Assembly: GCA_039090665.1 (NCBI GenBank)
Contig: JAWCSL010000001.1
Coordinates: 23,308 to 87,307, forward strand
DNA from: Candidatus Aenigmatarchaeota archaeon
GTDB lineage: Archaea; Aenigmatarchaeota; Aenigmatarchaeia; CG10238-14; SCSR01
Reading direction: 5' to 3'
Length of the DNA: 64,000 bases
The notes beneath the pieces are model-generated. The model saw only the letters and a program-made list of their open reading frames with translations. It ran no database searches and was not told the origin of the DNA. The position numbers and the translations under genes were made by a program. Positions 19,887 to 61,715 of this stretch are shown here, in pieces; the first letter of the stretch is position 1, and each line of letters begins with the position of its first letter.

Positions 19887-20040
19887 ATAACTTTCTTTAT
19901 CGATTTCTAATATGTTAGAAGCTGCCCAGCTCTTAAGGCCTCTCTCAAGAAAGTGATACGGAACTTCAGATCCTTCTGTGTAAAAGAATGGGCCGTAAAG
20001 TAATAATTTTCATTCCACACTATTAAGTTATTCTTTTTAT

Positions 20041-20479: not shown

Positions 20480-20551
20480 GGGCCGGTAGATCAATGGTAG
20501 ATCGCCTCGCTTGCAACGAGGAGGCTCCGGGTTCAAATCCCGGCCGGTCCA
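20480..20551 (+). tRNA. tRNA-Ala (TGC) with G3:U70
   Basis: The acceptor stem is GGGCCGG/CCGGTCC with a G3-U70 wobble, the Ala identity element. The anticodon loop is CTTGCAA. The T-arm is CCGGG-TTCAAAT-CCCGG and the discriminator is A. It sits about 300 nt upstream of the 23S processing stem. Confidence 0.85.
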
Positions 20552-20865
20552 TCAATGAAATTTTATTAAATTTAAATTCGAAATCTTTATAAATACAAAA
20601 TACAACTTATTTATTTGCCGGTGTCAGTATGTCTGCTTAATTCGAGCATCGGCTTTCTTTATTTTAGCGATGAGCTTTGTCTTTCTCTGCTGACAAAAAA
20701 GATGAAGATGTGGACACCTTGTGAGCAAGCTGCATGCAACTCCTTATTGAAAGAATAAGGGGTGAAGAGTGGAGGTTGATGATAACATTTATTCGCCTGA
20801 AAAAAGATGAAGAGCGAACTGTCTATTTGAAACCATAAGATGACACTACCACAGGATCAAGGAGG

Positions 20866-24222
<3,357 letters not shown>

Positions 24223-37662: not shown

Positions 37663-38829
37663 TTATTTTTCTTCTTCCACTCCTTTTTCCTTCAAAACTC
37701 TAGCCAAATCATGAATAAGCCTTCTCACATGCTCCCTCATCTCATAAACATCCTTATCAGGAATTTCCGTTATTTTCTTCTCGTCAGCAAGCTTCTTCAT
37801 GTTCACGATTTTAGACCACACTTCAGCATAGTAGGGATCTATTAACTTAGAATCAATAAACTCTCTCTTAAAAGCTAAAGCAACTTCTTCCTCTTTTTCA
37901 GGCATTTTATTCAAACTCTTTAATGCAGTTATTGCAGCTTTGTGCATGACTTCATAAGTTCTTTCCAAAATCTTTTCTCTCTTTCTTATCTCCAAAGCAT
38001 TTAATAAGCTAAACATTTTGTTGACAAATTTTTCCGCTTTTTCAATCCACTCGTCCACAAACTTTCCTTCAACATCCATAAGTTCTTTGTGCTCTATTTT
38101 CTTCCTTATTTCAATTATTTCTTTCAGCCATTCAGCATATTCCGGTTCAAGAATCCCAGGTTCAACCAAAAACTTTTTCACATCATCATAAGCTTTACTT
38201 GGTACAGGAGGAGCCAAGCCCATGAACATCAAAACAGCTTGAGCTGTGTTGAGCATAGCATAATAACAATCTTCTGCAAGCATTAGCAACTTTACAGTTT
38301 TTGCTCTCATTAGCTTCTTGGGGGCACCTTCCATATAACTTTCTATTGCTTCTCTTGTTGCAGGTATTTTTCCCATTTCAAGAAGTCTTTTGATTGGCAA
38401 GAAGAAACCTGTATCATAAATAGCTATACCTTCTTTAATGAAGTTGTATATTATTGGGTGACAAACTCTTGCATAGTCCCAGAATTCAGTTAAAGTGTAG
38501 CTTGGTTGGATCGAAAGCTTGTCAGAAATCTTTTCAGCAATTTTTTCTAAATCCTCATCAATTTTTTCTTGAAGTTCTGTAGTGATTTCATGAGTTGTGT
38601 CGTCCAAAACAACAAAAATATCAATATCACTTTTTGGCTTGAATTCGTCCCTTGCTACAGAGCCCATCATGACTATGCATTTTATGTATTTTCCATATTT
38701 TTCCAAAACCTGCTTTGCAAATTCTTCCACTTCTTTAAGCCTTTGCTCCCTAGTTTCTGGCTTTTCTTCTTTTTTTGCTTCATCTTCCATTTTTCCCACC
38801 ATTCTTTTTCTCTTCAACAACTTTAGCAA
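37663..38829 (-). CDS. Pol-β-superfamily nucleotidyltransferase fused to a HEPN-like helical domain (paralog 1, 388 aa)
   Basis: GSVARDEFKPKSDIDIFVVLDD is the hG[GS]x9-13Dh[DE]h NTase motif. The C-terminal helical domain carries a HEPN-like YYAMLNTAQAVLMF segment and RTYEVMH (Rx5H). Confidence 0.55.
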   Translation of the reverse strand: MLKLLKRKRMVGKMEDEAKKEEKPETREQRLKEVEEFAKQVLEKYGKYIKCIVMMGSVARDEFKPKSDIDIFVVLDDTTHEITTELQEKIDEDLEKIAEKISDKLSIQPSYTLTEFWDYARVCHPIIYNFIKEGIAIYDTGFFLPIKRLLEMGKIPATREAIESYMEGAPKKLMRAKTVKLLMLAEDCYYAMLNTAQAVLMFMGLAPPVPSKAYDDVKKFLVEPGILEPEYAEWLKEIIEIRKKIEHKELMDVEGKFVDEWIEKAEKFVNKMFSLLNALEIRKREKILERTYEVMHKAAITALKSLNKMPEKEEEVALAFKREFIDSKLIDPYYAEVWSKIVNMKKLADEKKITEIPDKDVYEMREHVRRLIHDLARVLKEKGVEEEK

Positions 38830-39265
38830 TTTCTTTCTTTATATAATAAAGTGATTCAATGGGTAAGTTGGAAACCAGGGAAGAATAAGATGAGCTTATT
38901 TCGATAAAAATGGCATCGGGATCACGAATACCTCTTTTATAAATTTTTTCTATTTCACTCCTTAAATCCAATGGTTTGTAAGAATCTTTTTTTTTTGGAG
39001 TTTGTAAAAACAACTCAACTAACTTACTTGAATTGTTTGAAGTTGGCAAAGCTTCATACTCTGAAATTTTTTCCAAAAAAATTTCTCTAGCTCTTTTTTC
39101 TTCTTCAGCCAGTTTTTCAACAATTTCTTCCAAATTTAAGTTCTTTGCTTTTTCATTTTCCAACTCTTCTCGTAATTTATTATATCGCTTTTTTGTATCT
39201 TCCAAATCTTTTTGAAATTTTTCAGCAGCTTCAACTTTCTTTAAAAATTCTTCTACTAAACTCAT
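38780..39265 (-). CDS. Coiled-coil protein (162 aa) between the two NTase paralogs
   Basis: Highly charged heptad-rich sequence (EEFLKKVEAAEKFQKDLEDTKKRYNKLREELENEKAK…). The start is placed at the ATG at 39265 and abuts the upstream stop. It overlaps the downstream gene by about 50 nt. Confidence 0.4.
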   Translation of the reverse strand: MSLVEEFLKKVEAAEKFQKDLEDTKKRYNKLREELENEKAKNLNLEEIVEKLAEEEKRAREIFLEKISEYEALPTSNNSSKLVELFLQTPKKKDSYKPLDLRSEIEKIYKRGIRDPDAIFIEISSSYSSLVSNLPIESLYYIKKEIAKVVEEKKNGGKNGR

Positions 39266-39266
39266 T

Positions 39267-40121
39267 TCACTCAACCTCTGGCAATTCCTCACTCTTTAAT
39301 TCTTCTGGAAGCAACTGCTTAAATCTATCTATTATTTCTTTTGTCAACTTGAGAGCCCTCTCAAGATAAGCAGCATCCACTTCTTTCACAATCTTGTGAT
39401 CAATATCTTTCCAAAGCTTGTCAAGCTCTTTGAATTTCTCTATGTATTCTTTCTCCAGTTTTTTCTCTTCCACCAGCTTTTCCAAAAATTCTGGTATTGC
39501 CTTTTGGTCTGGTTGGGCTTTGTAGTAGTGCATGACAACAGCTTGAATGATATCAGTGGCAGCATATCTCAGCTCGAAGATCATGCTCTTCAAGTCAGCT
39601 TTTATTTTTCTATACCTCACTTCTCCTGCTTTTGCTTTCAGTTTTATGGTTTCTTCGCTTGGTGGCAGCAATCCCATTTGAAGCATTCTCTGAACAGGTT
39701 TGATGAAACCAGTATCGTAAATCGGCAAACCATACCTCAAGAAGTTAACAAGCTCAGGCGAGCCAGCCCTAACCCATTGCCAGAATTCCGTCAACAAAGT
39801 GATTTGAATGTGAAGATCCTTGAGCTCATGAGCTATCAAATAAAGCTGAGAGCTTACTTTGTCCAAATCTTCTGAGCTTTTTGTTGCTGTGTCGTCAAGT
39901 ATAACCCAAACATCAGCATCACTACCCTTTTTCATAGTTCCTTTCACAACAGACCCGAAAATTAGCACTGATTTAATCAAATTACCATACTGTTTCCTAG
40001 CTTCATTAGTGAATTTCACAACTTTTTCTATAACTTTTCTTTGTAATTCTGCCTGTTCTTGGTCTTCTTTCTTTGCTAACTCAACATCTTCCAATTCATC
40101 TTCCAAATTTTTTATGTCCAT
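39267..40121 (-). CDS. Pol-β-superfamily nucleotidyltransferase with HEPN-like C-terminal domain (paralog 2, 284 aa)
   Basis: GSVVKGTMKKGSDADVWVILDD is the NTase motif. It is colinear with paralog 1 (WQWVRAGSPELVNFLRYGLPIYDTGF vs WDYARVCHPIIYNFIKEGIAIYDTGF; ELRYAATDIIQAVVMHYY vs EDCYYAMLNTAQAVLMF). Confidence 0.55.
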   Translation of the reverse strand: MDIKNLEDELEDVELAKKEDQEQAELQRKVIEKVVKFTNEARKQYGNLIKSVLIFGSVVKGTMKKGSDADVWVILDDTATKSSEDLDKVSSQLYLIAHELKDLHIQITLLTEFWQWVRAGSPELVNFLRYGLPIYDTGFIKPVQRMLQMGLLPPSEETIKLKAKAGEVRYRKIKADLKSMIFELRYAATDIIQAVVMHYYKAQPDQKAIPEFLEKLVEEKKLEKEYIEKFKELDKLWKDIDHKIVKEVDAAYLERALKLTKEIIDRFKQLLPEELKSEELPEVE

Positions 40122-40166: not shown

Positions 40167-41984
40167 CTACCTAAACTTTTCTCTTTTCCACTCTTCTATT
40201 TTTCCCTTCTCCACTGCAGCTCTTCCAAGGAAGCCATGTGTTTCTTCTGGAACCATTAACAATCCTCTTAAAGGATCGTAAGCGTGTTCTTTTATCACAG
40301 TTCTCTGTCTTTCTTCTGATGCTACTTCCTTTACATCTATACCGAAAAATTCAGGGTATTCAATTAGTTTTTCTGGAGGTATATCTTTTTCCAAAAACTT
40401 GATAATCAATTGCAATGAAATCACTGATTGTTGAAAACTTTCTGGTCCACCTCTTTCAAAAATTATGTAACAATCTTTATCTTTACCAAAACCTTTTTGC
40501 CTTAGTTTGTAGTACATTTCATACAAGTATTTTTGTTGGTCTGAACCAACTTCTATTGGTAAGTGGGCTGGGGCTAAAGTTGAAGGCCAACCTGCGTGTA
40601 TTACTCTAACATATTTGCCTCCGTCTTCCGGAAGCAATTCTATAACTTTTCCCGGATCTATTCTTAAGCTAAGCATGTGTTCAAAATCCATAGCAATTGC
40701 AAAAATATTTTTTCCTGCTTGTTTATTTGCTTCTTCAACCAAAAAGTAATACTGATAAGGATTAGCCAACCTAAGCCACTCTTCTATTCCTCTTCCTCCC
40801 ATTGGTGATTCTAAAGCGAAAATCATTCCATCTTCGTCCAAATATTTTTTCGGATCTTCATACTCTTTTCTTGTTGGGAAAAAATGGCCATAAATGTATC
40901 TTGCAGAAACAGCAGGAACCCAAATCTCATAAACTGTCCTAAAGTTGCCATCTTCTATCGTAAGCCTTTCTGGGCTTATCCCTTTTTTCTTCATCCATTC
41001 CTCTACGCTTATACCATCCCTTTTAGCAAAAAATCTTATGCTAGCATTCACTATTTTTTCCCACAAAGGATCTTTGTTTTCTTCCATCCATTTTGCAACG
41101 AAATAGTAAGCCCATCTCTCTGGGCCATAATGCAAATCTCTCGATTGAACCAGCGAAACAACATAATCCACAATATCAACAAAAGTTATTTCCAAAGATC
41201 TTCTTATTCCTTCATCAATCATATTTTTCAAAGCTTCTTCAGCTTCAACATACTTTTTCCCTCTGGATATTTCTTCACTTTGCACCCTGTTCATTATCCT
41301 ATCTTGCAAATATTCTTCAAAAGTTCTTCCTCTCAAGAGCTCGAGCCAGAAAAAATTTTGCGGTTTTATTCCTTTTTCCCTGAAAGCATTTTCTATATCT
41401 TTTTTGTCTATTTGTCCTGTCTCTTTCCCTTTTTCTTTCCAAATATTCATCAAAATCTCAATCATTTCTTTTGATTTGTTTTCTTTGTTTCCGCTAATCA
41501 ACCAATTTAAAAGCCAATTATTTTGAGTTAGAAATTCCCTGAAAGGATTTCCTTGAGGATCGACCAAATCACAAGACTGTAGAGTTCTTTCTAAAAGCCT
41601 GAAAGGTTCTGATTCAGAAGAATGAACTAAAACATATTTTGCTCCTATATCTTTTGAATGTTTCAAAATCAAAATGAGTCTTTCATGAGCCCTCTCATAT
41701 TCCATCTTTATCGCAGAATCGAGCTCAGCAGCTTCAACACCAAAAGCTCTTGTTTCGCTATGAATTCCAAATTCTATTCCAAGTTTTTCCTTAATATCTT
41801 TTTTCATCTTCTTTTCCAGCTCGGGCTCTTCAAATTCCGAAAGCGACTCTAAATCAAGCTGAACAAACTTCACACCTTTCGTTATTCCTGCTTGAGCTTT
41901 CTTGAACAATCCAGCTAGTTGAGGCTTTTCTTCCCCACCAGCAACCCCAAAAGCTCCGGTTGAAACCCCTAAGATATAACCCAT
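40167..41984 (-). CDS. Large hypothetical protein (605 aa), second gene of the cluster
   Basis: A long ORF with no recognisable motif. It begins MGYILGVSTGAFGVAGGEEKP. Confidence 0.55.
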   Translation of the reverse strand: MGYILGVSTGAFGVAGGEEKPQLAGLFKKAQAGITKGVKFVQLDLESLSEFEEPELEKKMKKDIKEKLGIEFGIHSETRAFGVEAAELDSAIKMEYERAHERLILILKHSKDIGAKYVLVHSSESEPFRLLERTLQSCDLVDPQGNPFREFLTQNNWLLNWLISGNKENKSKEMIEILMNIWKEKGKETGQIDKKDIENAFREKGIKPQNFFWLELLRGRTFEEYLQDRIMNRVQSEEISRGKKYVEAEEALKNMIDEGIRRSLEITFVDIVDYVVSLVQSRDLHYGPERWAYYFVAKWMEENKDPLWEKIVNASIRFFAKRDGISVEEWMKKKGISPERLTIEDGNFRTVYEIWVPAVSARYIYGHFFPTRKEYEDPKKYLDEDGMIFALESPMGGRGIEEWLRLANPYQYYFLVEEANKQAGKNIFAIAMDFEHMLSLRIDPGKVIELLPEDGGKYVRVIHAGWPSTLAPAHLPIEVGSDQQKYLYEMYYKLRQKGFGKDKDCYIIFERGGPESFQQSVISLQLIIKFLEKDIPPEKLIEYPEFFGIDVKEVASEERQRTVIKEHAYDPLRGLLMVPEETHGFLGRAAVEKGKIEEWKREKFR

Positions 41985-41994
41985 TTATTCACCT

Positions 41995-43725
41995 CTATGG
42001 AGCACCAAATGAAGATTTTATGAAGTTTACTATCATACCCCAGGCCGCTGCTACTTCACGTAAATAGTATTTTGTTATTCTCTCTTTGAGAGCAAATTCA
42101 TAAGGAATTTTATAAGGAACTTTTGCTCTGAAGAAATTCAATTCTAAACCAAAGAACTCGAAAAATTTTTCAAAAATTTTAGTTATCCTTTCAACAGGAT
42201 TCTCTCCTTTCTCCTTTACTTTTTCCTTTCTTTCTTCTTCAAACTTTTTTGTATACTCTTTCACAAGCTCATCGATATCAACAATTTCTATTCTCTTCTT
42301 TCCCCCATCTTCTTTTTCCAAAACTCCAGCCTCACCTAACATTTGTTTCAAATAAAGTTCAATCTTTTTGTCTTTTACTTCAAGCTCTATCAATCTACCT
42401 ATTATTATATTTTGAGTTTCAAGCCAAGCCGTTAGTCTATCAAACATTAAATCTTCAATTTCAGTTCCATTTGGCAAGCGAATAACAGCTCTTATTACAG
42501 GAATTTCAAAGAACATGAAGTACGGACTAAACACCCAAGCTTCATAGTCTGTAAGACCTGAAACAGATTTTTCAAATCTATTGACAAGTCTTTCTCTTGC
42601 TTTAAAAATCTCTTTAGCAGTAATTTTTATTCCTTTATACTCACTAGAGTTTTCTATAGCTTTAATTATTTTCCTTACAACCTCATCTATAGAAGGCTCT
42701 ACAGGTAAAGCTTTAACCATCCCATCTTTATCTAACAATCCTTCTTCTTTCAATTCTTCTATTTCTTCTGGCGTGAATCCTGCCTCTTCAGCAGGAATTT
42801 TGTCTAAAGGAGTTTCTCTCACAGCTTTGTACTTATCTGGAGCTGCAAAAGGTTTCCAGGCCCAAATGGTAGCAATATCTAAAGACATCGCTTGAGATTC
42901 AGGCTTCCAGAAAGCAGCTCTCTCAAGAAGAGAAGCTATTGCAGGATCGCTAAGTCCATCAACTATGGATTTATATCTTCTTAATGTAGGTTTAAGCATC
43001 TCTTTATATTCTTCATAAGATTTTTTTCTCGCTTCAACTAATCCGATCAAGCTTTTAAACCTTTCTTCCACAGCTTTCTTGAAAAGCTCGTCTCTCCATT
43101 CCTTATAAAGTTTGTTTTTTGTTGCTAGGATTACAGCTTCTGCTTCAGAAACTTTGTGTTTTTCTGCTATTTTCTTTGGTTCAACATCTTCATCATCAAG
43201 CTTCATGAAATCTGCAATAATTGTCGGCCATCTTGCAGCTATAGACCTCAAAGCAATTGGCTGGTTTGGTAAGTCTGTATGAGCATCAACTTGATCTATG
43301 AAAATTGCTTTGAGAGATTGCTCACCTTGTAATCTAAGCTTATCATCTTTCTTTTTCTTACCAACTTCTATCATCTTGTAATAATCCATGAACTCCTTGT
43401 ATTTTCTCAAATCATGTCTCAAGAGCTCTAAGTCCGAAAAAGCTGTGGCTATACTTGCCAAACCAGCTTTTATTATTGCTTCCAACTCTTCTTTTTGTTT
43501 CAGCGTTAGTTGGTAGTATTGTTGAAAAACTGGGCTCACTACTATTTTTTCATCAATTTTTACTCTTTCAAATCCCCACTTTGGAAGCTGGAAAATTAAA
43601 GCCAGAAGAACTCCAGAAGCTTTACCAAGATTTGAGTCTATATCAAGAAAAATGTTACAATCTTTTAGTTGAATGTTAAGGCCGCATCCTGGAGGAATTT
43701 TATCATCTTTCGGATATTCAACCAT
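41995..43725 (-). CDS. Large hypothetical protein (576 aa), first large gene of the cluster
   Basis: A long ORF with no recognisable motif. It lies 10 nt upstream of the next gene. Confidence 0.55.
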   Translation of the reverse strand: MVEYPKDDKIPPGCGLNIQLKDCNIFLDIDSNLGKASGVLLALIFQLPKWGFERVKIDEKIVVSPVFQQYYQLTLKQKEELEAIIKAGLASIATAFSDLELLRHDLRKYKEFMDYYKMIEVGKKKKDDKLRLQGEQSLKAIFIDQVDAHTDLPNQPIALRSIAARWPTIIADFMKLDDEDVEPKKIAEKHKVSEAEAVILATKNKLYKEWRDELFKKAVEERFKSLIGLVEARKKSYEEYKEMLKPTLRRYKSIVDGLSDPAIASLLERAAFWKPESQAMSLDIATIWAWKPFAAPDKYKAVRETPLDKIPAEEAGFTPEEIEELKEEGLLDKDGMVKALPVEPSIDEVVRKIIKAIENSSEYKGIKITAKEIFKARERLVNRFEKSVSGLTDYEAWVFSPYFMFFEIPVIRAVIRLPNGTEIEDLMFDRLTAWLETQNIIIGRLIELEVKDKKIELYLKQMLGEAGVLEKEDGGKKRIEIVDIDELVKEYTKKFEEERKEKVKEKGENPVERITKIFEKFFEFFGLELNFFRAKVPYKIPYEFALKERITKYYLREVAAAWGMIVNFIKSSFGAP

Positions 43726-43750
43726 AATTTAAATTAATTTTTTTTCTGTA

Positions 43751-43912
43751 TTAAGTTTTCAACAAGTAAATCCCAACAGCAATCAAACCAAAGCCTAAGA
43801 TAACTCCAGTGAAGCTAATTTGTTCTGGTTGGTAATCTTTTATTTCAGGAAAGAACATAACTGTCAAAATTCCTCCAAGTAGACAAACTGCACCCAAAAT
43901 TTTGTTTAACAT
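43751..43912 (-). CDS. Small 2-TM membrane peptide (53 aa)
   Basis: The hand translation is MLNKILGAVCLLGGILTVMFFPEIKDYQPEQISFTGVILGFGLIAVGIYLLKT. It is shorter than the 60-aa cut-off of the ORF track. Confidence 0.35.
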   Translation of the reverse strand: MLNKILGAVCLLGGILTVMFFPEIKDYQPEQISFTGVILGFGLIAVGIYLLKT

Positions 43913-44056
43913 CTATTTAATTAATTGAATTCCCAATCCTAAAAAAATTGGACCAAGCAATAGCTGTACTAAAAAAGAATCGTAATCTTCCACCCTACCA
44001 CAATTAAAAGTAAAAACTAAACCAAGAAATATCAAAACCGCACCCAAAACTTTCAT
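43913..44056 (-). CDS. Small 2-TM membrane peptide (47 aa), tandem paralog of the preceding one
   Basis: The hand translation is MKVLGAVLIFLGLVFTFNCGRVEDYDSFLVQLLLGPIFLGLGIQLIK. Its TAG abuts the ATG of the next peptide. It shares the pattern M(K/L)xxLGAV…DY…G(I/L)xLGxGxI. Confidence 0.35.
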   Translation of the reverse strand: MKVLGAVLIFLGLVFTFNCGRVEDYDSFLVQLLLGPIFLGLGIQLIK

Positions 44057-44125
44057 GTTTATTCTTTAAGACAAAGGATTTTAAATCTTTTTATTTTCTA
44101 CCCATTAAATAAATTATGTGGTTGA

Positions 44126-44659
44126 ATGCCGGTTTTTGCTAGAACAAAGCTTGTAATTCAAGATGATTGTTTGGTCCCACAAGCTTCTTTTGCCACAATA
44201 GAATACAAGGGCCCAAATCCCCAAAACCTTTACAATAAAATTAAAGAATTGCTTGTCACAATTTGGAGAGTAGATCCTGGGGATGTTCAAGAGAGAGAAT
44301 TCAGCTGGGATAGAAGCTCAGGAACTGAAAAATTCAGGGTTAGGTTTGAAGCTGTTAAAGACCTTGATACTTTCAGTTTTTTCTTCATAAGGATAAATTT
44401 AAGTGGAGAAGCAAAGCATAGTAGAGAATTTGGAAGAGAAGGAAGTGCAAAAATCGAGCTCGACACTTGTCTTAGAACAGAATATCCTCAAGACACGATT
44501 TGGCAAAGAAGCTTGATTTATGAAATGTTTAGGATGCTTTGGCATAAAGCAATTTATCAGAACACAAGGCTAAGATACTTACAAGAGTGTAGGGAGCTCT
44601 CACATAAGTTTTTAGAAGAAATAAAATCTTTTCTTAACGCTTTACCAAAAAGTTATTAG
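44126..44659 (+). CDS. Hypothetical protein, tandem paralog 1 (177 aa)
   Basis: It is clearly related to the next ORF (IEYKGPNPQNLYNKIKELL vs INYKGLNPIQFYKKLDSNY; REFSWDRSSGTEKFRVRF vs RDFRWSADSEPHPFFIRVF; LRTEYPQDTIWQRSLIYEMF vs LRTEFKLKTGFQQTPLYKAL). Confidence 0.5.
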   Translation: MPVFARTKLVIQDDCLVPQASFATIEYKGPNPQNLYNKIKELLVTIWRVDPGDVQEREFSWDRSSGTEKFRVRFEAVKDLDTFSFFFIRINLSGEAKHSREFGREGSAKIELDTCLRTEYPQDTIWQRSLIYEMFRMLWHKAIYQNTRLRYLQECRELSHKFLEEIKSFLNALPKSY

Positions 44660-44667
44660 TGTAAATT

Positions 44668-45183
44668 ATGCCGAGTTGGATTGTTGAAGACGATATTCTT
44701 GCACCAAGGAATAAGATTGAAATAAATTACAAAGGATTGAACCCAATTCAATTTTACAAGAAACTTGATAGCAATTATTTTCAAACAAGATTTGAAGTTG
44801 GAGGTACAGACTATATGGAAAGGGATTTCAGATGGAGTGCTGATAGCGAACCACACCCTTTTTTCATAAGAGTTTTTGTTCACAAAGGCTATGATAACTA
44901 CACTGAAGCGTGGTTCGAAATTCTATTTCAAGGAGTTCAACCTTCTGATCCAACAAAAGAGGGAAACGTGAAGATAACAATAGGCGGGAACTTGAGGACA
45001 GAATTCAAACTTAAAACAGGCTTCCAGCAAACTCCTTTGTACAAAGCTTTGCTTTGGCTTTACATAAAAATTTTCTATGCAAATGTGAGGAGAAGCTATT
45101 TGAAAGATGCACAAAAAAGGATTGAGTTGCTTGTGAAAGAAATAAGAGAATGGGCAGGAATGCCGGAGGTTGTTTATGTTTAG
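44668..45183 (+). CDS. Hypothetical protein, tandem paralog 2 (171 aa)
   Basis: See paralog 1. The two genes are 8 nt apart. Confidence 0.5.
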   Translation: MPSWIVEDDILAPRNKIEINYKGLNPIQFYKKLDSNYFQTRFEVGGTDYMERDFRWSADSEPHPFFIRVFVHKGYDNYTEAWFEILFQGVQPSDPTKEGNVKITIGGNLRTEFKLKTGFQQTPLYKALLWLYIKIFYANVRRSYLKDAQKRIELLVKEIREWAGMPEVVYV

Positions 45184-45391
45184 TTGGTTCAAGAAAAAAG
45201 AGAAGCCTTTGCCACCAGAATCTCTTAAGCCCTTGGAGCCTTTAGAACCTTTAGAACCTAAACCTGAAGTAAATAAAATCCCGACAGAGCAAAAAATTGA
45301 ATTGCTTTTAGCGCAAATTGAAGCGATGAATGAAAGATTGAAGAATATTGAAAGAATGGTGGAAGAAATTTATAAAATAGCAAAGGGTTAA
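45170..45391 (+). CDS. Small protein with PLEPLEPLEP repeat and C-terminal coiled coil
   Basis: An ORF of 73 aa. Its first 14 nt overlap the previous gene. Confidence 0.3.
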   Translation: MFMFSWFKKKEKPLPPESLKPLEPLEPLEPKPEVNKIPTEQKIELLLAQIEAMNERLKNIERMVEEIYKIAKG

Positions 45392-46571: not shown

Positions 46572-46765
46572 ACTTTTGCCTATTGTGAATCAATAGAAGT
46601 GTAAGAAGAACCTAAAGGTAAATAATTTCTAAAATCCAAATTACTTATTGAATGGTTGTACTCAAGAAAAGGTTTCGTGGCGTTAGACAAAGCTTAAAAA
46701 GAGCAAGAGCTTACTTGGATAGAAAAATTTACAACAAGTTTTGGAGGTACTTGAGGAGGAAGTGA

Positions 46766-47560
46766 ATGCCGAGGGCAATCTTCACGGGAGCAATTTCTTT
46801 CGGCCTCGTTCATATTCCGATCAGAATTTACACTGCTACTGAATCAAAAGAAATAGAGTTTCACAATTTGTGTCCTGAATGTCTTTCGCCTTTGGAATAC
46901 AAGAGATGGTGTCCAAAATGTCAGAAAGAAGTTGCTTGGCAAGATGTAAAGAAAGGGTTCAAGATTTCAAAAGAAAGATGGGTTGTTCTTGATAAAGAAG
47001 AAATAGAAAAGCTCAAGCTACCAAGCACGAAAGCCTTAGAAATTCAAAGCTTTATTGATGTTTCTCAAATAGACCCAATTTTCTTCCAGAAAGCTTACTA
47101 TGTTGTTCCTGAGGAGGGAGGAGAAAAACCTTATTCTCTGCTTGTAGAAGCTCTAAGGCTTGCGAACAAAGCAGCAATTGGCAAAGTGGTTTTGAAGAAT
47201 AAGGAATACTTAGTTTGCTTGAGGCCTTTTAAGAAAGGGTTGGTCATGCACTTGCTTTACTTCTTGCGTGAAATTAAAGATATAGAAGAGTTGCCCGAAC
47301 TTAAGAATTTGGTCGTTGTTAGCAAAGAAGAGCTCGAGTTGGCAAAAGCTTTGATAAGCAAGCTTACAGAAGAAGAGTTTGATGCCAGCAAGTTTAAAGA
47401 TGAGTATACTGAAAAACTGAAAGAACTGATAAAAGCTAAGGCTGAAGGTAAGGAAGTTGAAATCAAAGCTGAAGAGAGAGTAGCGGAAGCTAAAAGTCTT
47501 ATGGAAGCCTTGAAAGCAAGCGTTGAACAAGCGAAGAAGAAAAAAGTTGAAGAGAAATAA
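46766..47560 (+). CDS. ku: Ku DNA end-binding protein with an inserted zinc-ribbon
   Basis: IFTGAISFGLVHIPIRIY is the Ku core N-terminal β-strand motif. A CPECLS…CPKCQ insertion follows. The C-terminus is K/E-rich. Confidence 0.8.
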   Translation: MPRAIFTGAISFGLVHIPIRIYTATESKEIEFHNLCPECLSPLEYKRWCPKCQKEVAWQDVKKGFKISKERWVVLDKEEIEKLKLPSTKALEIQSFIDVSQIDPIFFQKAYYVVPEEGGEKPYSLLVEALRLANKAAIGKVVLKNKEYLVCLRPFKKGLVMHLLYFLREIKDIEELPELKNLVVVSKEELELAKALISKLTEEEFDASKFKDEYTEKLKELIKAKAEGKEVEIKAEERVAEAKSLMEALKASVEQAKKKKVEEK

Positions 47561-47562
47561 TT

Positions 47563-48534
47563 ATGAGCCTTTGGAATAAAACGATAAAACCAATGCTTGC
47601 TGAAATTGCTAAGCCTTTTAGTGATGAGAAATTCTGCTTTGAGATAAAGTTTGATGGTACTAGAACAATAGCTTACATAGACAAGCAGAAAAAAGAAGTA
47701 AGGTTTTTAAATAGGCGTGGCATATGGTTTCAAGACCGCTACCCCGAGATGAAAGAGCTTTGGAAAGATGTGGAAGCAGAGCAAGTAATTCTTGATGGTG
47801 AGCTTGTTGTTTTTAATCAAGGAAAGCCTGATTTTTACCTTTTGGCTGAAAGGGAGCATGTTGGAAGCAAAGCTAGAGCTGAAATTTTATCAAGGCTTAA
47901 TCCTGCCACGCTTGTTGTTTTTGATGTTTTGCATTTGGATGGAAAAGATTTAGTTGATCTTCCTTTGATTGAAAGAAAGAAGATTTTGGAGAAAATTGTG
48001 AAAGAGAGTGAAAGAGTTTTGATTTCAGCTTATGTTATTGGTGAAGGTGAAAAATTTTTTGAAGAAGTTAAGGCTAAAGGTTTTGAGGGTGTGATGGCAA
48101 AGAGGCTTGATTCAAAGTATGAAATTGGAAGAAGAAGCAAGAATTGGCTGAAGATCAAAGCTTTAAACAGCTTGGATGCAATAATTTGTGGTTATACTTT
48201 AGGTGAAGGTAAGCGCGAGAAATACTTTGGGGCTTTGTTGCTCGGAGCGATACATGAAGGCAAGCTTAGGTACATTGGACGCGTGGGCACAGGCTGGCAG
48301 GAAAAAGATTTGGAAGAGCTAACTCAAAAACTTAAAAAAATTGAAATTGAGAAAAATCCTTTTGATGTTTTTGAAGAAGAGCCTTCTATTCTTGAAAAAG
48401 TTAAGTGGGTAAAACCAAAGCTTGTTTGTGAAGTTCAGTTTTTAGAGCTAACAGAAGATTTGAAGCTGAGAGCACCAAGCTTCAAGAGGTTGAGGGAAGA
48501 TAAAGCTGCAGAAGAATGTAGCTTAGAAGTTTAA
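47563..48534 (+). CDS. ATP-dependent DNA ligase (LigD ligase-domain-like, 323 aa)
   Basis: Motif I is EIKFDGTR (KxDG), motif IV is EGVMAK and motif V is NWLKIK, with an OB domain following. It starts 2 nt after the ku stop. Confidence 0.85.
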   Translation: MSLWNKTIKPMLAEIAKPFSDEKFCFEIKFDGTRTIAYIDKQKKEVRFLNRRGIWFQDRYPEMKELWKDVEAEQVILDGELVVFNQGKPDFYLLAEREHVGSKARAEILSRLNPATLVVFDVLHLDGKDLVDLPLIERKKILEKIVKESERVLISAYVIGEGEKFFEEVKAKGFEGVMAKRLDSKYEIGRRSKNWLKIKALNSLDAIICGYTLGEGKREKYFGALLLGAIHEGKLRYIGRVGTGWQEKDLEELTQKLKKIEIEKNPFDVFEEEPSILEKVKWVKPKLVCEVQFLELTEDLKLRAPSFKRLREDKAAEECSLEV

Positions 48535-55022: not shown

Positions 55023-55784
55023 ATGTTCCAAATAGAAAGAGTTAAAACTTTGATTCCTGGATTTGATGAGTTAGTGAAAGGAGGAATCCCAAAAAGAAAT
55101 ATAGTACTGCTTTCAGGAGGTCCGGGAACAGGAAAAAGTATATTTGCACAGCAATTTATCTTCAATGGCTTAAAACAAGGTGAAAGAGGTGTTCTAGTAA
55201 CTTTAGAAGAACATCCTGTACAATTGAGGAGGAACATGCTTGCTTTTGGTTGGGATGTAAAAAAGTTTGAAGAAGAAAACAAGTTTGCTATTGTCGATGC
55301 TTTCACAGGAGGAGTGGGAGAAACAGCGAAAAAGGAAAAATATGTGGTAAGAAGCACTGATGATATACCTGAGCTATTAGATGTTATAAGACAATCCATT
55401 AAAGATATAGGAGCAGAAAGAATTGTAATAGATTCTATTTCAACCCTCTACCTTACAAAACCTGTTCTGGCTAGAGGTGTTTTAATGCAGCTTAAAAGAG
55501 TTATTTCAGGTTTAGGTGCAACAGCCATTTTTGTTTCTCAAGTGAGTGTAACTGAGAGAGGATTTGGTGGGCCTGGAGTTGAGCATGCTGTCGATGGAAT
55601 AATAAGATTAGATTTAGATGAAATTAATGGAGAGCTTGTTAGATCTTTGATAATATGGAAGATGAGAGGCACTGCTCATGATATGCACAGAAGACCTTTT
55701 GAAATAACAGACAAAGGTATAATTGTTGATTCAAAAAAGATTGTGAAGATGAGAGGAGAATTTTCAAAAATTTTGGAGGGATGA
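55023..55784 (+). CDS. KaiC-like RecA-superfamily ATPase
   Basis: [29 protein letters not shown] is the KaiC/RadA-like N-terminus with Walker A. Walker B is RIVIDSIS. Confidence 0.75.
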
Positions 55785-56924: not shown

Positions 56925-57509
56925 ATGTTTATAAAAGATTTTAGGAAAGAGGATAAACCTTTAGAAAGACTTGTAGAAAAAGGACCGGAAGCTTTAAGCA
57001 ACACTGAACTTTTAGCTATAGCTTTATGGAAGCTTAATAATTGTTCTGTTTTTGAAAAAGCGAGCGAAATTTTAAAGAAGCAAAATGTTAAAAGACTTTT
57101 TGAATGTTCTGTTGGTGAGTTGGAAAATTTGATTGGAGACAAAATTAAAGCTTGTCAAATTGCTTCATGTTTTGAATTGGCTAAAAGAGCTTTCTCTTAT
57201 GTTGAAGAAAAGCCTTTGATTGAAAGTCCAGAAGATGTTTATAGAATTTTAGGCCCGGAAATGCAAGGGTTAAAGCAAGAAGTGGTTAAAGTTGTTTTGT
57301 TGGATTCAAGAAATAGGTTAATTAAAATTGAAACTGTTTCGGTAGGAAGCTTGAATGAAAACTTGGTTCATCCTAGAGATGTTTTTAGAAAAGCTATAGA
57401 AAACAATGCTGCTTCTATTATTTTAGTTCATAATCATCATTCAGGAGATGTTGAAGAGAGCGAAGAGGATATAAAAGTTACTAAAAACATAATAAAAGCT
57501 GCATACTAG
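56925..57509 (+). CDS. radC: RadC-like JAB/MPN-domain protein
   Basis: LSNTELLAIAL is a helix-hairpin-helix-like N-terminus. HNHHSGDVEESEEDIKVTK is the JAMM motif (HNHPSGxxxPSxxD). The protein ends shortly after the motif and is slightly short for RadC. Confidence 0.7.
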   Translation: MFIKDFRKEDKPLERLVEKGPEALSNTELLAIALWKLNNCSVFEKASEILKKQNVKRLFECSVGELENLIGDKIKACQIASCFELAKRAFSYVEEKPLIESPEDVYRILGPEMQGLKQEVVKVVLLDSRNRLIKIETVSVGSLNENLVHPRDVFRKAIENNAASIILVHNHHSGDVEESEEDIKVTKNIIKAAY

Positions 57510-57705
57510 GAATAGAAGTAAAGGATCATATTGTAATATGAGGTAATAGTTTTGTGTTTTTCAAAAGATTACGAATATAATTTTTTCTAAGGAGAATATT
57601 AGTGAAATATCACTCAAAAGAAATAAAAATGATACGAAAATACTGGAAAAATAATCTCGACTTAAATTTTGATAAGTTTTTTAATTTTAACTTATCCACA
57701 TAATC

Positions 57706-59727
57706 CTTTCAATCCTACATTAATCTGATTTTAACGAAAAAACAGTTATATCACTGTTGCGATGACAAAAATCTTTCAATCCTACATTAGTCTGATTTTA
57801 ACATTTTGATATTATTGAAATTTTTGATGAAAAGGAAGTCTTTCAATCCTACATTAGTCTGATTTTAACTCACAACTGCAGCAACTGCCACGAAAGCAAG
57901 TGGATCTTTCAATCCTACATTAGTCTGATTTTAACTACTGATTGGCAAACAGGAGAACTTTTAGGAAAGTACTTTCAATCCTACATTAGTCTGATTTTAA
58001 CCGTTCAAGTCTCCAGCCTCTGCTTTCACCGCATTCTCATCTACTTTCAATCCTACATTAGTCTGATTTTAACTAATCTATAAAAAGTGGTAAAAATAAC
58101 TCTAGGTCTCTAGATCTTTCAATCCTACATTAGTCTGATTTTAACATAAATCTCATGCTTTGGTCCAAGTCAAAACGAAAGATCTTTCAATCCTACATTA
58201 GTCTGATTTTAACTGGCTTTTCTGTTTAAGAATATAATTTGGCTTGCAATAGCTTTCAATCCTACATTAGTCTGATTTTAACTAGTAAAATTGGCGAGAG
58301 AAATGCTTTATGAAGAAAATTCTTTCAATCCTACATTAGTCTGATTTTAACAATATATCTGGAGAGGAAGGCCTGCTTATGCAATCAGCTTTCAATCCTA
58401 CATTAGTCTGATTTTAACCTTTTTATCCTATTGCTAAGCAGCTTTTAAATTGGGTCTTTCAATCCTACATTAGTCTGATTTTAACAAGCAATGTGAATGT
58501 CACGCCAATATTCACTTTAACAGCCTTTCAATCCTACATTAGTCTGATTTTAACTATTTCACAATTAAGTGCGGAATGGAAATTGAAGTTTTCTTTCAAT
58601 CCTACATTAGTCTGATTTTAACAAGTATTTCTTTGCGGGTTTTCATCCCGCAAAACTACTCTTTCAATCCTACATTAGTCTGATTTTAACTAAAGTGACA
58701 AAGCAATGGTGGCTGGGTGATTGGTAAACTTTCAATCCTACATTAGTCTGATTTTAACACTGTTTTTTGGAAGTAGACTGGCGACAACTTTGTCTCTTTC
58801 AATCCTACATTAGTCTGATTTTAACCACATCAGACTGATTGGTTCATCATGAAGATAATAAACTTTCAATCCTACATTAGTCTGATTTTAACCTATGTTT
58901 TTCTTTCCAACTTTTCTGACCCAATCTTGCATGACTTTTTCTTTCAATCCTACATTAGTCTGATTTTAACCCTTTGTAAGTTCAGCTCTTTTGCCAGCTC
59001 ATCTAACTTGCTTTCAATCCTACATTAGTCTGATTTTAACTGGCAGTATGGAGAGAGAAATGAAAGTGAAAACTATAAACTTTCAATCCTACATTAGTCT
59101 GATTTTAACTTTGGATTTGGATACCACATTCATCACACCTTCCATTCTTTCAATCCTACATTAGTCTGATTTTAACAAAAATCATACTGGAGATTGATGA
59201 ATTACTTGCAACATATTGCTTTCAATCCTACATTAGTCTGATTTTAACGTTGTATTTTAGGTTTCCAACTTCTGCAATCAAATTATCTTTCAATCCTACA
59301 TTAGTCTGATTTTAACTAATCAAGAGATGAATATGCTATTCCAACCACATGTGGTCTTTCAATCCTACATTAGTCTGATTTTAACTGTGGAAGGAGATTT
59401 AGATTCTGATGCAGAACTTGATAACTTTCAATCCTACATTAGTCTGATTTTAACTTGTTTGGTGTTTATTATGTGTGTAGAATTCTTGACTCTTTCAATC
59501 CTACATTAGTCTGATTTTAACCTTTGATACAAACAAACAACACGCAAATACAGTTTAAGTTCTTTCAATCCTACATTAGTCTGATTTTAACAAAACTCGA
59601 ACAAGGCCTATTCTCTTACTGCTATAAACTTTCAATCCTACATTAGTCTGATTTTAACTTGAAAAAATCCATCATTGTGTATAATAAAGTTTAAATACTT
59701 TCAATCCTACATTAGTCTGATTTTAAC
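57706..59727 (-). CRISPR. CRISPR array, 30 repeats of 30 nt and 29 spacers of 36-42 nt; the repeat on the transcribed strand is GTTAAAATCAGACTAATGTAGGATTGAAAG
   Basis: The perfect direct repeat CTTTCAATCCTACATTAGTCTGATTTTAAC (plus strand) was counted by hand at 57773, 57840, 57906 … 59698. The distal repeat at 57706 has one mismatch (TAATCTG). The leader side is adjacent to cas2, and the reverse complement ends in ATTGAAAG, typical of type I repeats. Confidence 0.95.
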
Positions 59728-59825
59728 CCAGCCCGAAAGCCAAAATTTTTTCGATTAAAGCCGATTCCTTATATTTAAATCATCATGGATTTATAAAAAG
59801 CTATTTGTTTATAAAGATCCACAAC
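59728..59825 (-). promoter_or_regulatory. Putative CRISPR leader
   Basis: A 98-nt AT-rich segment lies between cas2 and the first full repeat. The degenerate repeat is at the opposite end of the array. Confidence 0.4.
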
Positions 59826-60090: not shown

Positions 60091-61098
60091 CTACCACCAA
60101 ATTACAAATGGTTCATATTTTTTAACTCCAAGCAAATGTTTTATGAGCTTATAACACTCTAGTCTAATTAATCTTTGAAAAGATACACTTCTTCCCAAAT
60201 CTCTGTGTTTTATAGTAGTTTTAAGTTTTTCGTCATAGTGCTGTAAAAAAATCTTCTTTCCATTATTGTTAAGAAGAGTGTAGTTCAATTCCTTCATAAA
60301 ATGTTTTTCTTCAATTATTCGTTTGTTAATTAGCTTGAAGATAACCCTATCCGCTAATAAAGGTTTGAAAATTTCACTTAAATCTAAAGCTAAAGAAAAT
60401 CTCCTTTCGAATGGTTCATGTAAATAACTTATGGTTGGATTTAATTGTGTGTTGTAAATTTCTGTTAATATTGTGGAGTAAACCAAAGAATTGCCAAAGC
60501 TAATTAAGCAATTTATCATATTTTCCGGTGGCCTTTTTGTTCTTTTATCAAAATGGAACTTTTCAGGAAAAATTTTGTTAAAGCTTTGGTAATATGTATC
60601 CCAAATATTTCCTTCTATTGCCATAATTGCTGGAATATCATTCTGTTTTTCCAGTTCATTTAAAAGAAATTTAATTTTTTCTATTTCATCTTGCAATTCT
60701 CCTTTTGTTCTTTCATAATATTGTAAATTTTTCACAATATTCTGCCCGCAACCCTCAACAAATTTCTTTGCTAACTCTAACCTTTTCTCCTTGTTTAAAT
60801 AATACTCAACTTGTTTTACTAGTAAATATCCCGAAACCAAAGTTTCTCTTGGATATAAACTACCTTCATAAAAGCCATATTTATTAAAGAAATGAATCGG
60901 CACACCATACTTTGAAAGATAAGAAACTACGCCAGAAGAGAAAGTTACTCTTCCGTGAGCAAAAATTGCATAAATCTTGTTTATCGGCAAAATTTTCTTT
61001 TCTACCTCACCATTTTCATTCTTTTTAATAAAATAAACTGTGTTTTGTTTTCTTTTTAAAATTCCATTGCTAGTAATATAGTAATTTACCTTTCCCAT
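60091..61098 (-). CDS. cas1: CRISPR-associated integrase Cas1
   Basis: 335 aa. It has a Cas1-like layout with conserved E/H/E region candidates (…AIEGNIWDTYY…, …YLHEP…), and its stop abuts the cas2 start. Confidence 0.85.
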   Translation of the reverse strand: MGKVNYYITSNGILKRKQNTVYFIKKNENGEVEKKILPINKIYAIFAHGRVTFSSGVVSYLSKYGVPIHFFNKYGFYEGSLYPRETLVSGYLLVKQVEYYLNKEKRLELAKKFVEGCGQNIVKNLQYYERTKGELQDEIEKIKFLLNELEKQNDIPAIMAIEGNIWDTYYQSFNKIFPEKFHFDKRTKRPPENMINCLISFGNSLVYSTILTEIYNTQLNPTISYLHEPFERRFSLALDLSEIFKPLLADRVIFKLINKRIIEEKHFMKELNYTLLNNNGKKIFLQHYDEKLKTTIKHRDLGRSVSFQRLIRLECYKLIKHLLGVKKYEPFVIWW

Positions 61099-61121
61099 TT
61101 AATTGTTTATAAGTTTGTTAA

Positions 61122-61715
61122 CTATTTATTAATCCAGCATAATTCAAAGTAGCTACATTTTCTACAATACTTTTTCTTTTCTGGTTTTGGTGGTTTAGGT
61201 AAACAAACTATTCTTTTAATTTCTTGAAAAAGTTTTTGTAATTCATTTTCTTTCTCCGGAGTTAGCTTGACTTCAACAATTTTTCTTTTAGATGGATAAT
61301 TGATTATTCCTTCTGCGTTTTCGATCCCTTTCTCATGCTTAAGGTAGTAAAGATAATAAAGCATTTGATAATAGTGAGCCTCTTGAAATTTATCAGATTT
61401 TTTAATGTCATGAAGAATAAGTTTATCTCCCTTTTTGATAAAATCTATAGATATCTTCTGATCTATAAGTATGTCTTTCTCTATATCTTTAAATGCAATT
61501 TCATGTAATATTTTACCTAAAATTACAAGCTCAGATTCATGTTCCTGTGTAACATAATGAGAAAAATACCAAAGTTGTGTTTTACAATGAATGAAATAAC
61601 TCACCTGAACTCCTGTAAACAAAGCCTCTTCTTCAAATATTTTCTGAGAGTTTTGAGAAAAATTGTCTTGCTTCACTAAATCCATACACTTTTCTTGTTT
61701 TTTCTTTAAGCTCAT
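61122..61715 (-). CDS. cas4: CRISPR-associated exonuclease Cas4 (RecB-like nuclease with Fe-S Cys cluster)
   Basis: An N-terminal Cys (FIHCKTQLWY), a D…ILHDIKKSDK (D/ExK-like) motif, QEAHYYQMLYY (QxxxY) and the C-terminal CRKCSYFELC are present. The real start may be MDLVKQ at 61685. Confidence 0.8.
   Translation of the reverse strand: MSLKKKQEKCMDLVKQDNFSQNSQKIFEEEALFTGVQVSYFIHCKTQLWYFSHYVTQEHESELVILGKILHEIAFKDIEKDILIDQKISIDFIKKGDKLILHDIKKSDKFQEAHYYQMLYYLYYLKHEKGIENAEGIINYPSKRKIVEVKLTPEKENELQKLFQEIKRIVCLPKPPKPEKKKYCRKCSYFELCWINK

Follow-up and report, generated by a model that had tools for sequence, protein, structure and literature searches.

Does the Ku gene that lies next to an ATP-dependent DNA ligase gene in an uncultivated hot-spring-type archaeon (Aenigmatarchaeota) belong to a system for joining DNA ends, and if so, to a known type of system or to a new one? 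We addressed this for a 64-kb stretch of DNA (hereafter, the window), which is assigned to archaea on the basis of its SSU and LSU rRNA, both of which are archaeal. An earlier note on this DNA had proposed that an archaeon here pairs Ku with a ligase-only protein of the LigD type, and this identification holds, as both proteins score above the curated equivalog cut-offs of NCBI. The evidence presented below argues with good confidence that the locus, in the chromosome of a DPANN archaeon, is a probably co-transcribed two-gene NHEJ module of the prokaryotic Ku/LigD type. As such the pair is an ordinary member of a known system type, prokaryotic Ku/LigD-type end joining, and not a new kind of system. 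The positions of the relevant features are given in Table 1.

Table 1. Positions in the window of the gene pair and its associated elements.
Feature	Position	Strand	Description
Ku gene	46766..47560	+	264 aa: core beta-barrel, bridge region, C-terminal helix, Lys-rich tail
Stand-alone LigD-type ATP-dependent DNA ligase	47563..48534	+	323 aa; nucleotidyltransferase and OB domains only
Putative zinc-ribbon ligand segment of Ku bridge	46871..46921	+	C36-P-E-C39 ... C49-P-K-C52 (CxxC-x9-CxxC)
Intergenic stretch 5' of Ku	46572..46765	+	sequence read directly

In agreement with the earlier note, the two genes are adjacent and 2 nt apart, the stop codon TAA of the Ku gene being followed by TT and then by the ATG of the ligase gene. 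This 2-nt gap suggests that Ku and ligase are co-transcribed and translationally coupled. A strong Shine-Dalgarno-like site (GAGGAGG, positions 46753-46759) is present upstream of Ku, whose ATG begins 6 nt later, and a possible TATA-like sequence (CTTAAAAA) is located about 70 nt 5' of the Ku gene. No second Ku or ligase was found in the 64-kb window.

The Ku ORF holds GAISFGLVHIPIRIY and CPECLSPLEYKRWCPKCQ. It matches the Pfam Ku family PF02735 with an E-value of 8.4e-47 and a score of 160 bits (cut-off 25), residues 11-191 covering positions 1-189 of the 190 in the profile, and with model TIGR02772 (Ku_bact) it reaches 280.7 bits, the cut-off being 150, in this case with residues 3-253 aligned to profile positions 1-259 of 259. 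The protein is 100% identical to a GenBank entry named Ku protein of Ca. Aenigmatarchaeota archaeon. Using phmmer, solved bacterial Ku proteins were matched with E-values of 3.6e-44 (9vnq) and 2.3e-36 (8v53). The AlphaFold monomer model of Ku has a mean pLDDT of 79, and the top Foldseek matches of this model were 9vnq, 9ig8, 9i91 and 8v53, covering 225-269 columns with a probability of 1.00; the best of them are the Ku proteins of B. subtilis and M. tuberculosis, matched over their whole length. The high rmsd between the model and solved Ku is attributable to the pose that the bridge arm takes in the predicted monomer. With B. subtilis YkoV (9vnq) and M. tuberculosis Rv0937c (8v53/9i91) the protein shares its length class and domain order, 29-35% identity, a bridge that aligns without gaps, a full-length fold match and a conserved C-terminal helix (here SLMEALKASVE). 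It differs from them in that the Lys-rich, basic C-terminal tail following this helix is very short, and in that its host is archaeal.

The earlier note had interpreted the CxxC...CxxC stretch of this Ku as an insertion that bacterial Ku lacks. This interpretation has to be abandoned. In phmmer alignments Ku residues 30-62 align gaplessly both to B. subtilis Ku 9vnq (HKEDHAPIKYEKVCTNC) and to M. tuberculosis Ku 8v53 (HAKDNGRIRYKRVCEAC), and the segment, which thus has the same length as in bacterial Ku, consists of 33 residues in 134 of a diverse set of 142 Ku representatives. The absence of gaps from the alignments and the statistics on segment length together rule out that the zinc ribbon is an inserted domain. 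Four Cys/His residues are present at the same four positions in 78 of these 142 representatives (55%), and 23 of them (16%) have the Cys4 form. Among close homologues, 106 of the 107 that could be scored have the four Cys/His residues (80 CCCC and 26 HCCC), and W48, C49 and P50 are invariant among 34 DPANN Ku proteins. Two zinc knuckles are thus present in sequence, with C36, C39, C49 and C52 as the four putative ligands, and in the Ku model both CxxC motifs are in turns that are flanked by short strands (pLDDT 78-82). Judged by these alignments, the CPEC...CPKC stretch is the universal Ku bridge region, here in its full Cys4 form; it represents the ancestral bridge of Ku, fully liganded, and no new structural feature. 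One Zn2+ would probably be bound per Ku subunit at this bridge.

The atypical zinc ribbon of Ku is reportedly placed between early strands of the barrel, and the CxxC...CxxC found here is at exactly that place, without structural difference. All ligand positions are Cys in the present protein, whereas B. subtilis Ku has H and H/D-type residues plus a CxxC, and M. tuberculosis Ku has kept the second CxxC only. We know of no demonstration that a prokaryotic Ku binds zinc. Published papers on bacterial Ku structures do not mention zinc, and a recent cryo-EM paper on Ku from B. subtilis mentions no metal. Krishna & Aravind (2010, J Struct Biol 172:294) described the Ku bridge region as an atypical zinc ribbon, and compared with that ribbon this Ku is simply one in which all four cysteines have been kept.

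The ligase ORF, which holds EIKFDGTR, matches PF01068 (DNA_ligase_A_M; 3.1e-40, residues 10-199) and PF04679 (DNA_ligase_A_C; 3.3e-29, residues 218-314), and its score of 293.4 bits with model TIGR02779 (NHEJ_ligase_lig) is over the cut-off of 227.75. The models for full-length LigD (TIGR02776, PRK09632, PRK09633 and PRK05972) all remained under their cut-offs, for example with 233 versus 373 bits. PF01068 and PF04679 are the only domains of this 323-aa ligase; no Pol (PF21686) or PE (PF13298) domain is fused to it. Nucleotidyltransferase motifs I, III, IIIa, IV and V and the OB motif VI are intact, motif I being K29-F-D-G, motif III DGE, motif IV EGVMAK, motif V WLKIK and motif VI LRAPSFKRLREDK. 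The closest solved relative is the ligase domain of M. tuberculosis LigD (1vs0, 7e-44), and with this domain and with LigC-type stand-alone ligases the protein shares an architecture of nucleotidyltransferase and OB domains only.

These features bear on the possibility that the genes act mainly outside the joining of double-strand breaks, for example with the ligase functioning in nick sealing, base-excision repair or back-up replication, and Ku as an AP/dRP-lyase end-protection factor. In archaea, LIG-only proteins are indeed often present without Ku (230 of 243 genomes), the missing Pol and PE domains limit the repair scope of NHEJ by the pair alone, and bacterial Ku is reported to process abasic sites (PMC4245934). 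However, the ligase is over the cut-off of the NHEJ-ligase equivalog and under those of other ligase families, and it lacks the N-terminal DNA-binding domain of the replicative archaeal ligases, its alignment being limited to residues ~220-540 of these 560-aa proteins. In addition, throughout the clade this ligase subtype is without exception encoded next to Ku. We therefore consider a role mainly outside end joining unlikely.

The set had been described as minimal in the earlier note, and a domain search for Pol and PE near the pair bears this out: none was found in the window, which leaves Ku and a ligase-only protein. The HMMs used were derived from bacterial comparison loci retrieved with the same Ku query (18 Pol and 18 PE domains), and their best E-values in the 64-kb window were 3 and 5; these HMMs are bacterial-only, and very divergent archaeal versions could escape them. 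Pfam scans of 40 window proteins and of called genes within ~10 kb revealed no LigD_N or LigD_Prim-Pol. Pol and PE were also absent from the window together with 15 related DPANN loci (±10 kb around Ku, 239 kb in total); in nearly all bacterial comparison loci with sufficiently long contigs, Pol and PE adjoin Ku. The genome outside the 64-kb window may still harbour genes for Pol, PE, PolX or another ligase. Two upstream NTP_transf_2/'Polbeta' proteins (37663-38829 and 39267-40121) were rejected as a substitute polymerase, being minimal nucleotidyltransferase matches, one of them with a HepT-like C-terminus; they are of the toxin-antitoxin type, not PolX.

Returning to the two-gene NHEJ module, its mechanism can be outlined from the solved bacterial homologues. 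As a homodimer Ku would form a ring, threaded onto the end of the broken DNA, and the ring would be closed by the bridge carrying CPEC...CPKC, which the metal ion of each subunit would probably stabilise in a zinc-ribbon-like manner. Ku would hold or synapse the ends and recruit the adjacent stand-alone ligase, which would self-adenylate on K29 and seal the break. Because no Pol or PE is present beside the pair, here or in related DPANN, the module alone would join only directly ligatable ends (blunt or cohesive, with 3'-OH and 5'-P). Gap filling and end cleaning might, speculatively, be provided by enzymes encoded elsewhere, such as the replicative primase PriSL. Both the interaction between Ku and ligase and end joining in vivo are predicted by analogy with the bacterial systems. 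Mycobacterial Ku reportedly contacts LigD partly via domains that are absent from the present ligase.

Throughout Aenigmatarchaeota and Micrarchaeota the two genes stay together as a cassette, whose housekeeping surroundings vary. In all related DPANN loci on contigs of adequate length (L002-L006 and L008-L014) the ligase gene adjoins Ku, the related DPANN ligases are ~320 aa wherever the ORF is complete, and ligase domains only are present in 120 of the 120 closest ligase clusters. The same gene order was found in independent assemblies from NCBI, JGI, Logan and ENA, and synteny around the pair is kept in five related MAGs. A gene for a YchF-type GTPase adjoins the pair, and the window also contains rRNA, ArgRS, GlmS and TFB genes; in distant relatives the cassette adjoins a radical-SAM gene or PheRS-beta. 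All-against-all neighbour clustering of 10 DPANN loci revealed no conserved third partner of Ku and ligase. Only two neighbours recur in these loci, radical-SAM in three from Aenigmatarchaeota and PheRS-beta in Micrarchaeota, and as neither is plausibly linked to repair, both were discarded as a third repair partner of the polymerase, nuclease or Mre11/Rad50 kind. The radical-SAM neighbour is NrdG/PflA-activase-like, though below all cut-offs, and not spore-photoproduct-lyase-like. Away from the pair, the window also contains a CRISPR-Cas locus and genes of the MNT/HEPN type.

Among loci of Aenigmatarchaeota and Micrarchaeota and clusters labelled Parvarchaeota/Jingweiarchaeum, Ku identity is 53-96%, and no representative from outside this DPANN clade exceeds 47%; the Ku bit score falls from 376 to 247 at 50% clustering. 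The ligase displays the same identity pattern and is present on the same contigs. In a rough NJ tree, for which euryarchaeal Ku (Methanocella, Archaeoglobus) was outside the comparison set, the DPANN Ku proteins form one clade. The nearest outgroups include candidate bacterial phyla (Stahlbacteria and the WOR-3 label), and the labels Bathyarchaeia and Theionarchaea are also found on nearby branches. The nearest non-DPANN Ku clusters are mostly metagenomic proteins and hence the sister group of DPANN Ku is only loosely defined.

It is very improbable, in light of these data, that this particular genome recently acquired the genes horizontally from bacteria. The family models that they match are bacterial-type, the outgroups just mentioned include candidate bacterial phyla, and published analyses infer that transfer of Ku and LigD-LIG between bacteria and archaea was frequent; against this stand the gap between the identities within and outside the clade with the accompanying drop in score, the single DPANN clade in the tree, and a ligase that mirrors the Ku pattern and co-occurs with it. 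Since this pattern of Ku and ligase is clade-wide, any transfer, in whichever direction, would have been ancient and clade-wide. Slightly less probable still is an origin of the pair from a virus, plasmid or other mobile element instead of from host repair. In favour of it, Ku turns up in phages (53 records) and plasmids (700 records), and the CRISPR-Cas and MNT/HEPN-type genes show that accessory genes do occur in this region. Against it, identity is at most 33% to phage Ku (mycobacteriophages) and 38% to plasmid Ku, values that do not exceed those for Ku from bacterial chromosomes, IMG/VR yielded no relative, neither an integrase nor a capsid or replication-initiator gene was seen within 10 kb, the GC content of 0.37 is inside the protein-coding range of the window, and the pair has housekeeping neighbours in the order kept in the five MAGs. 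The grouping with phage or plasmid Ku/Lig that the earlier note had held out as a reason to reinterpret the locus was therefore not observed. A precedent for Ku on such elements is that of mycobacteriophages, which use it for genome circularisation.

The rarity of NHEJ in archaea, also claimed in the earlier note, applies to surveys of isolate genomes, which counted 10-19 archaeal Ku genes, all in Euryarchaeota; it does not extend to DPANN, in which the Ku-ligase operon is common (>100 clusters at 90% identity). The literature searched yielded no account of NHEJ in DPANN. Ku plus LIG without POL/PE is an explicitly defined bacterial category, the 'nonconventional NHEJ' of Sharda et al. 2020; the difference here is that the LIG-only state is fixed clade-wide and that the ligase always adjoins Ku. 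Methanocella paludicola resembles the present case in its archaeal host and in having Ku and ligase as separate polypeptides, but it has Ku, Lig, Pol and PE as separate proteins, whereas the search around the present pair revealed neither Pol nor PE. The few archaea with all four NHEJ genes are described as having them dispersed and not in operons, in contrast to the 2 nt that separate Ku and Lig here.

With belief and doubt nearly in balance, and doubt slightly ahead, we raise the possibility that DPANN share a long-maintained, clade-specific form of operonic two-gene end joining, consisting of a Cys4-zinc-ribbon Ku and a LIG-only ligase without Pol/PE. This would cover at least Aenigmatarchaeota, Micrarchaeota and Parvarchaeota/Jingweiarchaeum, the ligase being found also in Nanoarchaeia-labelled MAGs. 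If so, surveys that call archaeal NHEJ rare and non-operonic missed a DPANN system that was outside their coverage, a mildly notable point, and this system may be the NHEJ machinery in its minimal natural form, with the replicative primase possibly enlisted to process ends. A thermophile-derived Cys4 Ku and a 323-aa ligase would be well suited as a minimal system, with which zinc binding by prokaryotic Ku and recruitment of a ligase without Pol domain could be addressed. The DPANN system would also oppose the bacterial trend that ties NHEJ to large, GC-rich genomes (median genome of bacteria with NHEJ, 5.4 Mb), the small, low-GC genomes here being the opposite of that pattern. DPANN genomes are presumably small in general; the window has a GC content of ~0.33, and the contigs bearing homologues reach only 0.6-0.9 Mb.

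The mechanical ORF listing returned a 264-aa Ku ORF and a 323-aa ligase ORF, and the strings GAISFGLVHIPIRIY, CPECLSPLEYKRWCPKCQ and EIKFDGTR, from which the earlier note had recognized a Ku-ligase pair, were all found in these two ORFs. The genes are 2 nt apart (junction ...AAA TAA TT ATG...), and a Shine-Dalgarno-like sequence, GAGGAGG, is located 6 nt upstream of the Ku ATG. Pfam assigned PF02735 (Ku) to the 264-aa ORF (8.4e-47), and PF01068 and PF04679, the adenylation and OB domains of ATP-dependent ligases, to the 323-aa ORF. In NCBIfam, Ku scored 280.7 bits with TIGR02772 (Ku_bact) and the ligase 293.4 bits with TIGR02779 (NHEJ_ligase_lig), exceeding the curated equivalog cut-offs of 150 and 227.75, respectively; no full-length LigD model reached its own cut-off with the ligase. 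The window also contains archaeal SSU and LSU rRNA genes. In GenBank, the entries 'Ku protein [Candidatus Aenigmatarchaeota archaeon]' match its Ku with 100% identity, and the annotation there already calls these same two proteins 'Ku protein' and 'non-homologous end-joining DNA ligase'. Together these results confirm the genes, their coordinates, their adjacency and the archaeal host.

Positions of features in the window
Feature	Position	Strand	Remark
605-aa protein	40167-41984	-	no Pfam/NCBIfam match
576-aa protein	41995-43725	-	no Pfam/NCBIfam match
177-aa protein	44126-44659		no Pfam/NCBIfam match
171-aa protein	44668-45183		no Pfam/NCBIfam match
73-aa protein	within 40167-45391		no Pfam/NCBIfam match
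Ku gene	46766-47560	+	264-aa ORF
Ligase gene	47563-48534	+	323-aa ORF
KaiC/RadA-like ATPase	55023-55784		PF06745; precomputed Pfam on identical contig
RadC/JAB-domain protein	56925-57509		precomputed Pfam on identical contig
CRISPR array	57701-59728		30 repeats, core CTTTCAATCCTACATTAGTCTGATTTTAAC, spacing 66-78 nt
Cas1	60091-61098	-
Cas4	61122-61715	-
336-aa protein	61633-62643	-	no Pfam match
Cas3-like helicase	62640-63980	-	within 20 nt of window end
H+-pyrophosphatase gene	17526-19544	opposite to rRNA	between SSU and LSU
tRNA-Ala	20480-20551		between SSU and LSU
tRNA match	12438-12544	+	107 nt; Rfam, 53 bits; uncalled by ARAGORN

The proposal that Ku carries a zinc-ribbon insertion lacking in bacterial Ku did not hold. 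The phmmer alignments with the solved Ku of Bacillus subtilis (9vnq, 3.6e-44) and Mycobacterium tuberculosis (8v53, 2.3e-36) contain no gaps in Ku residues 1-100, and HKEDHAPIKYEKVCTNC and HAKDNGRIRYKRVCEAC of these two proteins lie opposite CPECLSPLEYKRWCPKC. Moreover, residues 11-191 cover positions 1-189 of the 190-position Pfam Ku profile, which leaves no space for an insert. A search of all proteins in a 1.84-billion-protein representative library gave 13,455 Ku relatives, and the segment was counted in the best 148, of which 142 were scorable. The equivalent of residues 30-62 was 33 residues long in 134 of these 142; 78 (55%) had Cys or His at all four ligand columns and 23 had four cysteines. 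Among the 120 closest Ku clusters (107 scorable), CCCC (80) and HCCC (26) together accounted for 106. The ligands are reportedly lost in eukaryotic Ku and retained in many prokaryotic Ku. W48-C49-P50 was invariant in an alignment of 34 sequences, and in the AlphaFold model built from it (mean pLDDT 79; 78-82 for residues 31-60) short strands adjoin the turns that hold the two CxxC motifs. In Foldseek, this model matches B. subtilis and M. tuberculosis Ku across its whole length. An inserted zinc-ribbon domain is thus ruled out by gapless alignment and nearly constant segment length, and the alignments, segment length, ligand counts and model together identify the CxxC...CxxC segment as the normal Ku bridge region. 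The window Ku is a fully liganded (Cys4) example of this bridge, with predicted zinc ligands, and no structural novelty. The bridge has been in print as a zinc ribbon since 2010 (Krishna & Aravind 2010); recent cryo-EM papers on bacterial Ku make no mention of zinc.

The nearest match of the ligase was the M. tuberculosis LigD ligase domain (1vs0, 7e-44), and motifs I (K29FDG), III, IIIa, IV, V and VI are all intact. With the 560-aa archaeal replicative ligases it aligned only over the catalytic core (residues ~220-540), and we consider it improbable that the enzyme acts mainly in replication or another role outside double-strand break (DSB) repair. HMMs for the LigD polymerase (Pol, PF21686) and 3'-phosphoesterase (PE, PF13298) domains, built from Pfam-verified domains of bacterial comparison loci and enriched to 18 sequences each, were run against all stop-to-stop frames (40 aa or longer) in the 239 kb comprising the window and 15 related DPANN loci. 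These HMMs of bacterial sequences gave no E-value below 0.12, and inside the window the lowest were 3 and 5. In addition, LigD_N and LigD_Prim-Pol were absent from Pfam scans of 40 window proteins and from the precomputed Pfam of called genes within ±10 kb. Within the window, the set is as minimal as had been supposed. Nearly all bacterial loci retrieved with the same Ku query on sufficiently long contigs have Pol and PE beside Ku, fused or separate.

With each GTDB species represented by one genome, the scan gave 36 Ku loci. Fifteen belong to DPANN MAGs (53-96% identity) labelled Aenigmatarchaeota, Micrarchaeota or, in some cases, just 'archaeon' or 'uncultured archaeon'; the others are bacterial (33-40%). 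Wherever the contig of a DPANN locus runs on beyond Ku, a ligase gene comes directly after it on the same strand; the ligase is ~320 aa long where its ORF is complete. The closest 120 ligase clusters (55-93% identity; labelled Aenigmatarchaeota, Micrarchaeia and Nanoarchaeia) all have a ligase-only architecture, and several share contig sizes with Ku clusters (e.g. 622,054, 387,120 and 89,809 bp). At 50% clustering the DPANN Ku clade was reduced to two representatives, beyond which scores dropped from 376 to 247 bits and identity to at most 47%. As to the choice between bacterial transfer and an archaeal clade, the DPANN set formed one clade in a rough NJ tree (no support values), and the neighbouring branches carry bacterial as well as archaeal labels (Stahlbacteria, WOR-3/Bathyarchaeia, Theionarchaea). 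We regard a recent acquisition of the pair from bacteria as unlikely. Origin from a mobile element likewise has little probability: the pair has a GC content (0.37) inside the local range, Ku of phages (mycobacteriophages, at most 33% identity) and of plasmids (at most 38%) is no more similar than Ku from bacterial chromosomes, IMG/VR contains no relative, and the grouping with mobile-element Ku that the earlier note had considered was not found.

The same arrangement is present in 12 independently assembled contigs from NCBI, JGI, Logan and ENA and hence is no assembly artefact. Five close relatives, all Aenigmatarchaeota MAGs, share in synteny the genes for the 576-, 177-, 171- and 73-aa proteins and a YchF-type GTPase, followed by Ku and the ligase. 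The conserved proteins of this upstream block (40167-45391) match no Pfam or NCBIfam model; the 177- and 171-aa proteins are tandem paralogues (27-31% mutual identity), and the 605-aa gene, outside this comparison, recurs on contigs with identical Ku. In distant relatives a radical-SAM gene or PheRS-beta adjoins the cassette, and no conserved third partner was found in the related DPANN loci. The radical-SAM protein (~360 aa), which ends just before the Ku start in three distantly related Aenigmatarchaeota loci (L006:422-1501, L008:8899-9996, L009:1676-2767), is NrdG/PflA-activase-like, scores below all NCBIfam cut-offs and has no evident repair link. The remainder of the window is housekeeping (ArgRS, GlmS, deoxyhypusine synthase, adenylate kinase, ThiI, TFB, H+-PPase, rRNA). 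The KaiC/RadA-like ATPase and RadC/JAB protein, 6-9 kb downstream of the ligase, are neither adjoining nor conserved with the pair. At 37663-40121 (minus strand), two minimal nucleotidyltransferases (NTP_transf_2/'Polbeta') surround a 161-170-aa ORF, and the C-terminus of one (388 aa) weakly matches HepT; instead of a DNA polymerase, these genes look like an MNT/HEPN toxin-antitoxin-type arrangement.

The best-supported reading is that Ku and ligase form a two-component, prokaryotic-type NHEJ module. The Ku homodimer would form a ring whose closing segment is the bridge, probably stabilised by zinc; this ring would thread onto DNA ends and keep them together, as described for the B. subtilis and M. 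tuberculosis structures. The ligase, probably co-translated, would be recruited by Ku and seal 3'-OH/5'-P ends in vivo. Having no Pol or PE, the module by itself cannot fill gaps or clear 3' blocks. Because PriSL, the replicative primase, promotes microhomology-mediated DSB repair in a Saccharolobus study, it is, speculatively, a candidate helper.

Bacteria have the same combination of Ku and ligase domain without Pol and PE, classed as 'nonconventional NHEJ' (Sharda et al. 2020). Archaeal NHEJ has been established in Methanocella paludicola, where Ku, Lig, Pol and PE each form a protein of their own. Isolate-genome surveys reported Ku in 10 of 243 archaeal genomes or in 19 OrthoDB entries, all euryarchaeal; one denied an operon arrangement of archaeal NHEJ genes. 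DPANN lineages are not mentioned in the archaeal-Ku surveys, and no study of DPANN NHEJ turned up in our search. What is new, modestly, is a DPANN-wide, tightly operonic, ligase-only cassette in small, low-GC genomes, in contrast to bacterial NHEJ, which is associated with large, GC-rich genomes. It is at most a clade-level extension and no new kind of system. The initial observation is confirmed in part, the genes being present and the insertion absent, and the interpretation first offered is supported in part.

The CRISPR array adjoins four minus-strand genes (60091-63980), and this CRISPR-Cas locus, ~9 kb from the Ku-ligase operon, is type I-like. In the rRNA region (15562-24215), SSU (1737 nt) and LSU (3344 nt) are ~3.5 kb apart and longer than their Rfam models (1478 and 2987 nt), which implies insertions or introns, without an ORF of at least 150 aa. 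The Rfam tRNA match is probably an intron-containing archaeal tRNA.
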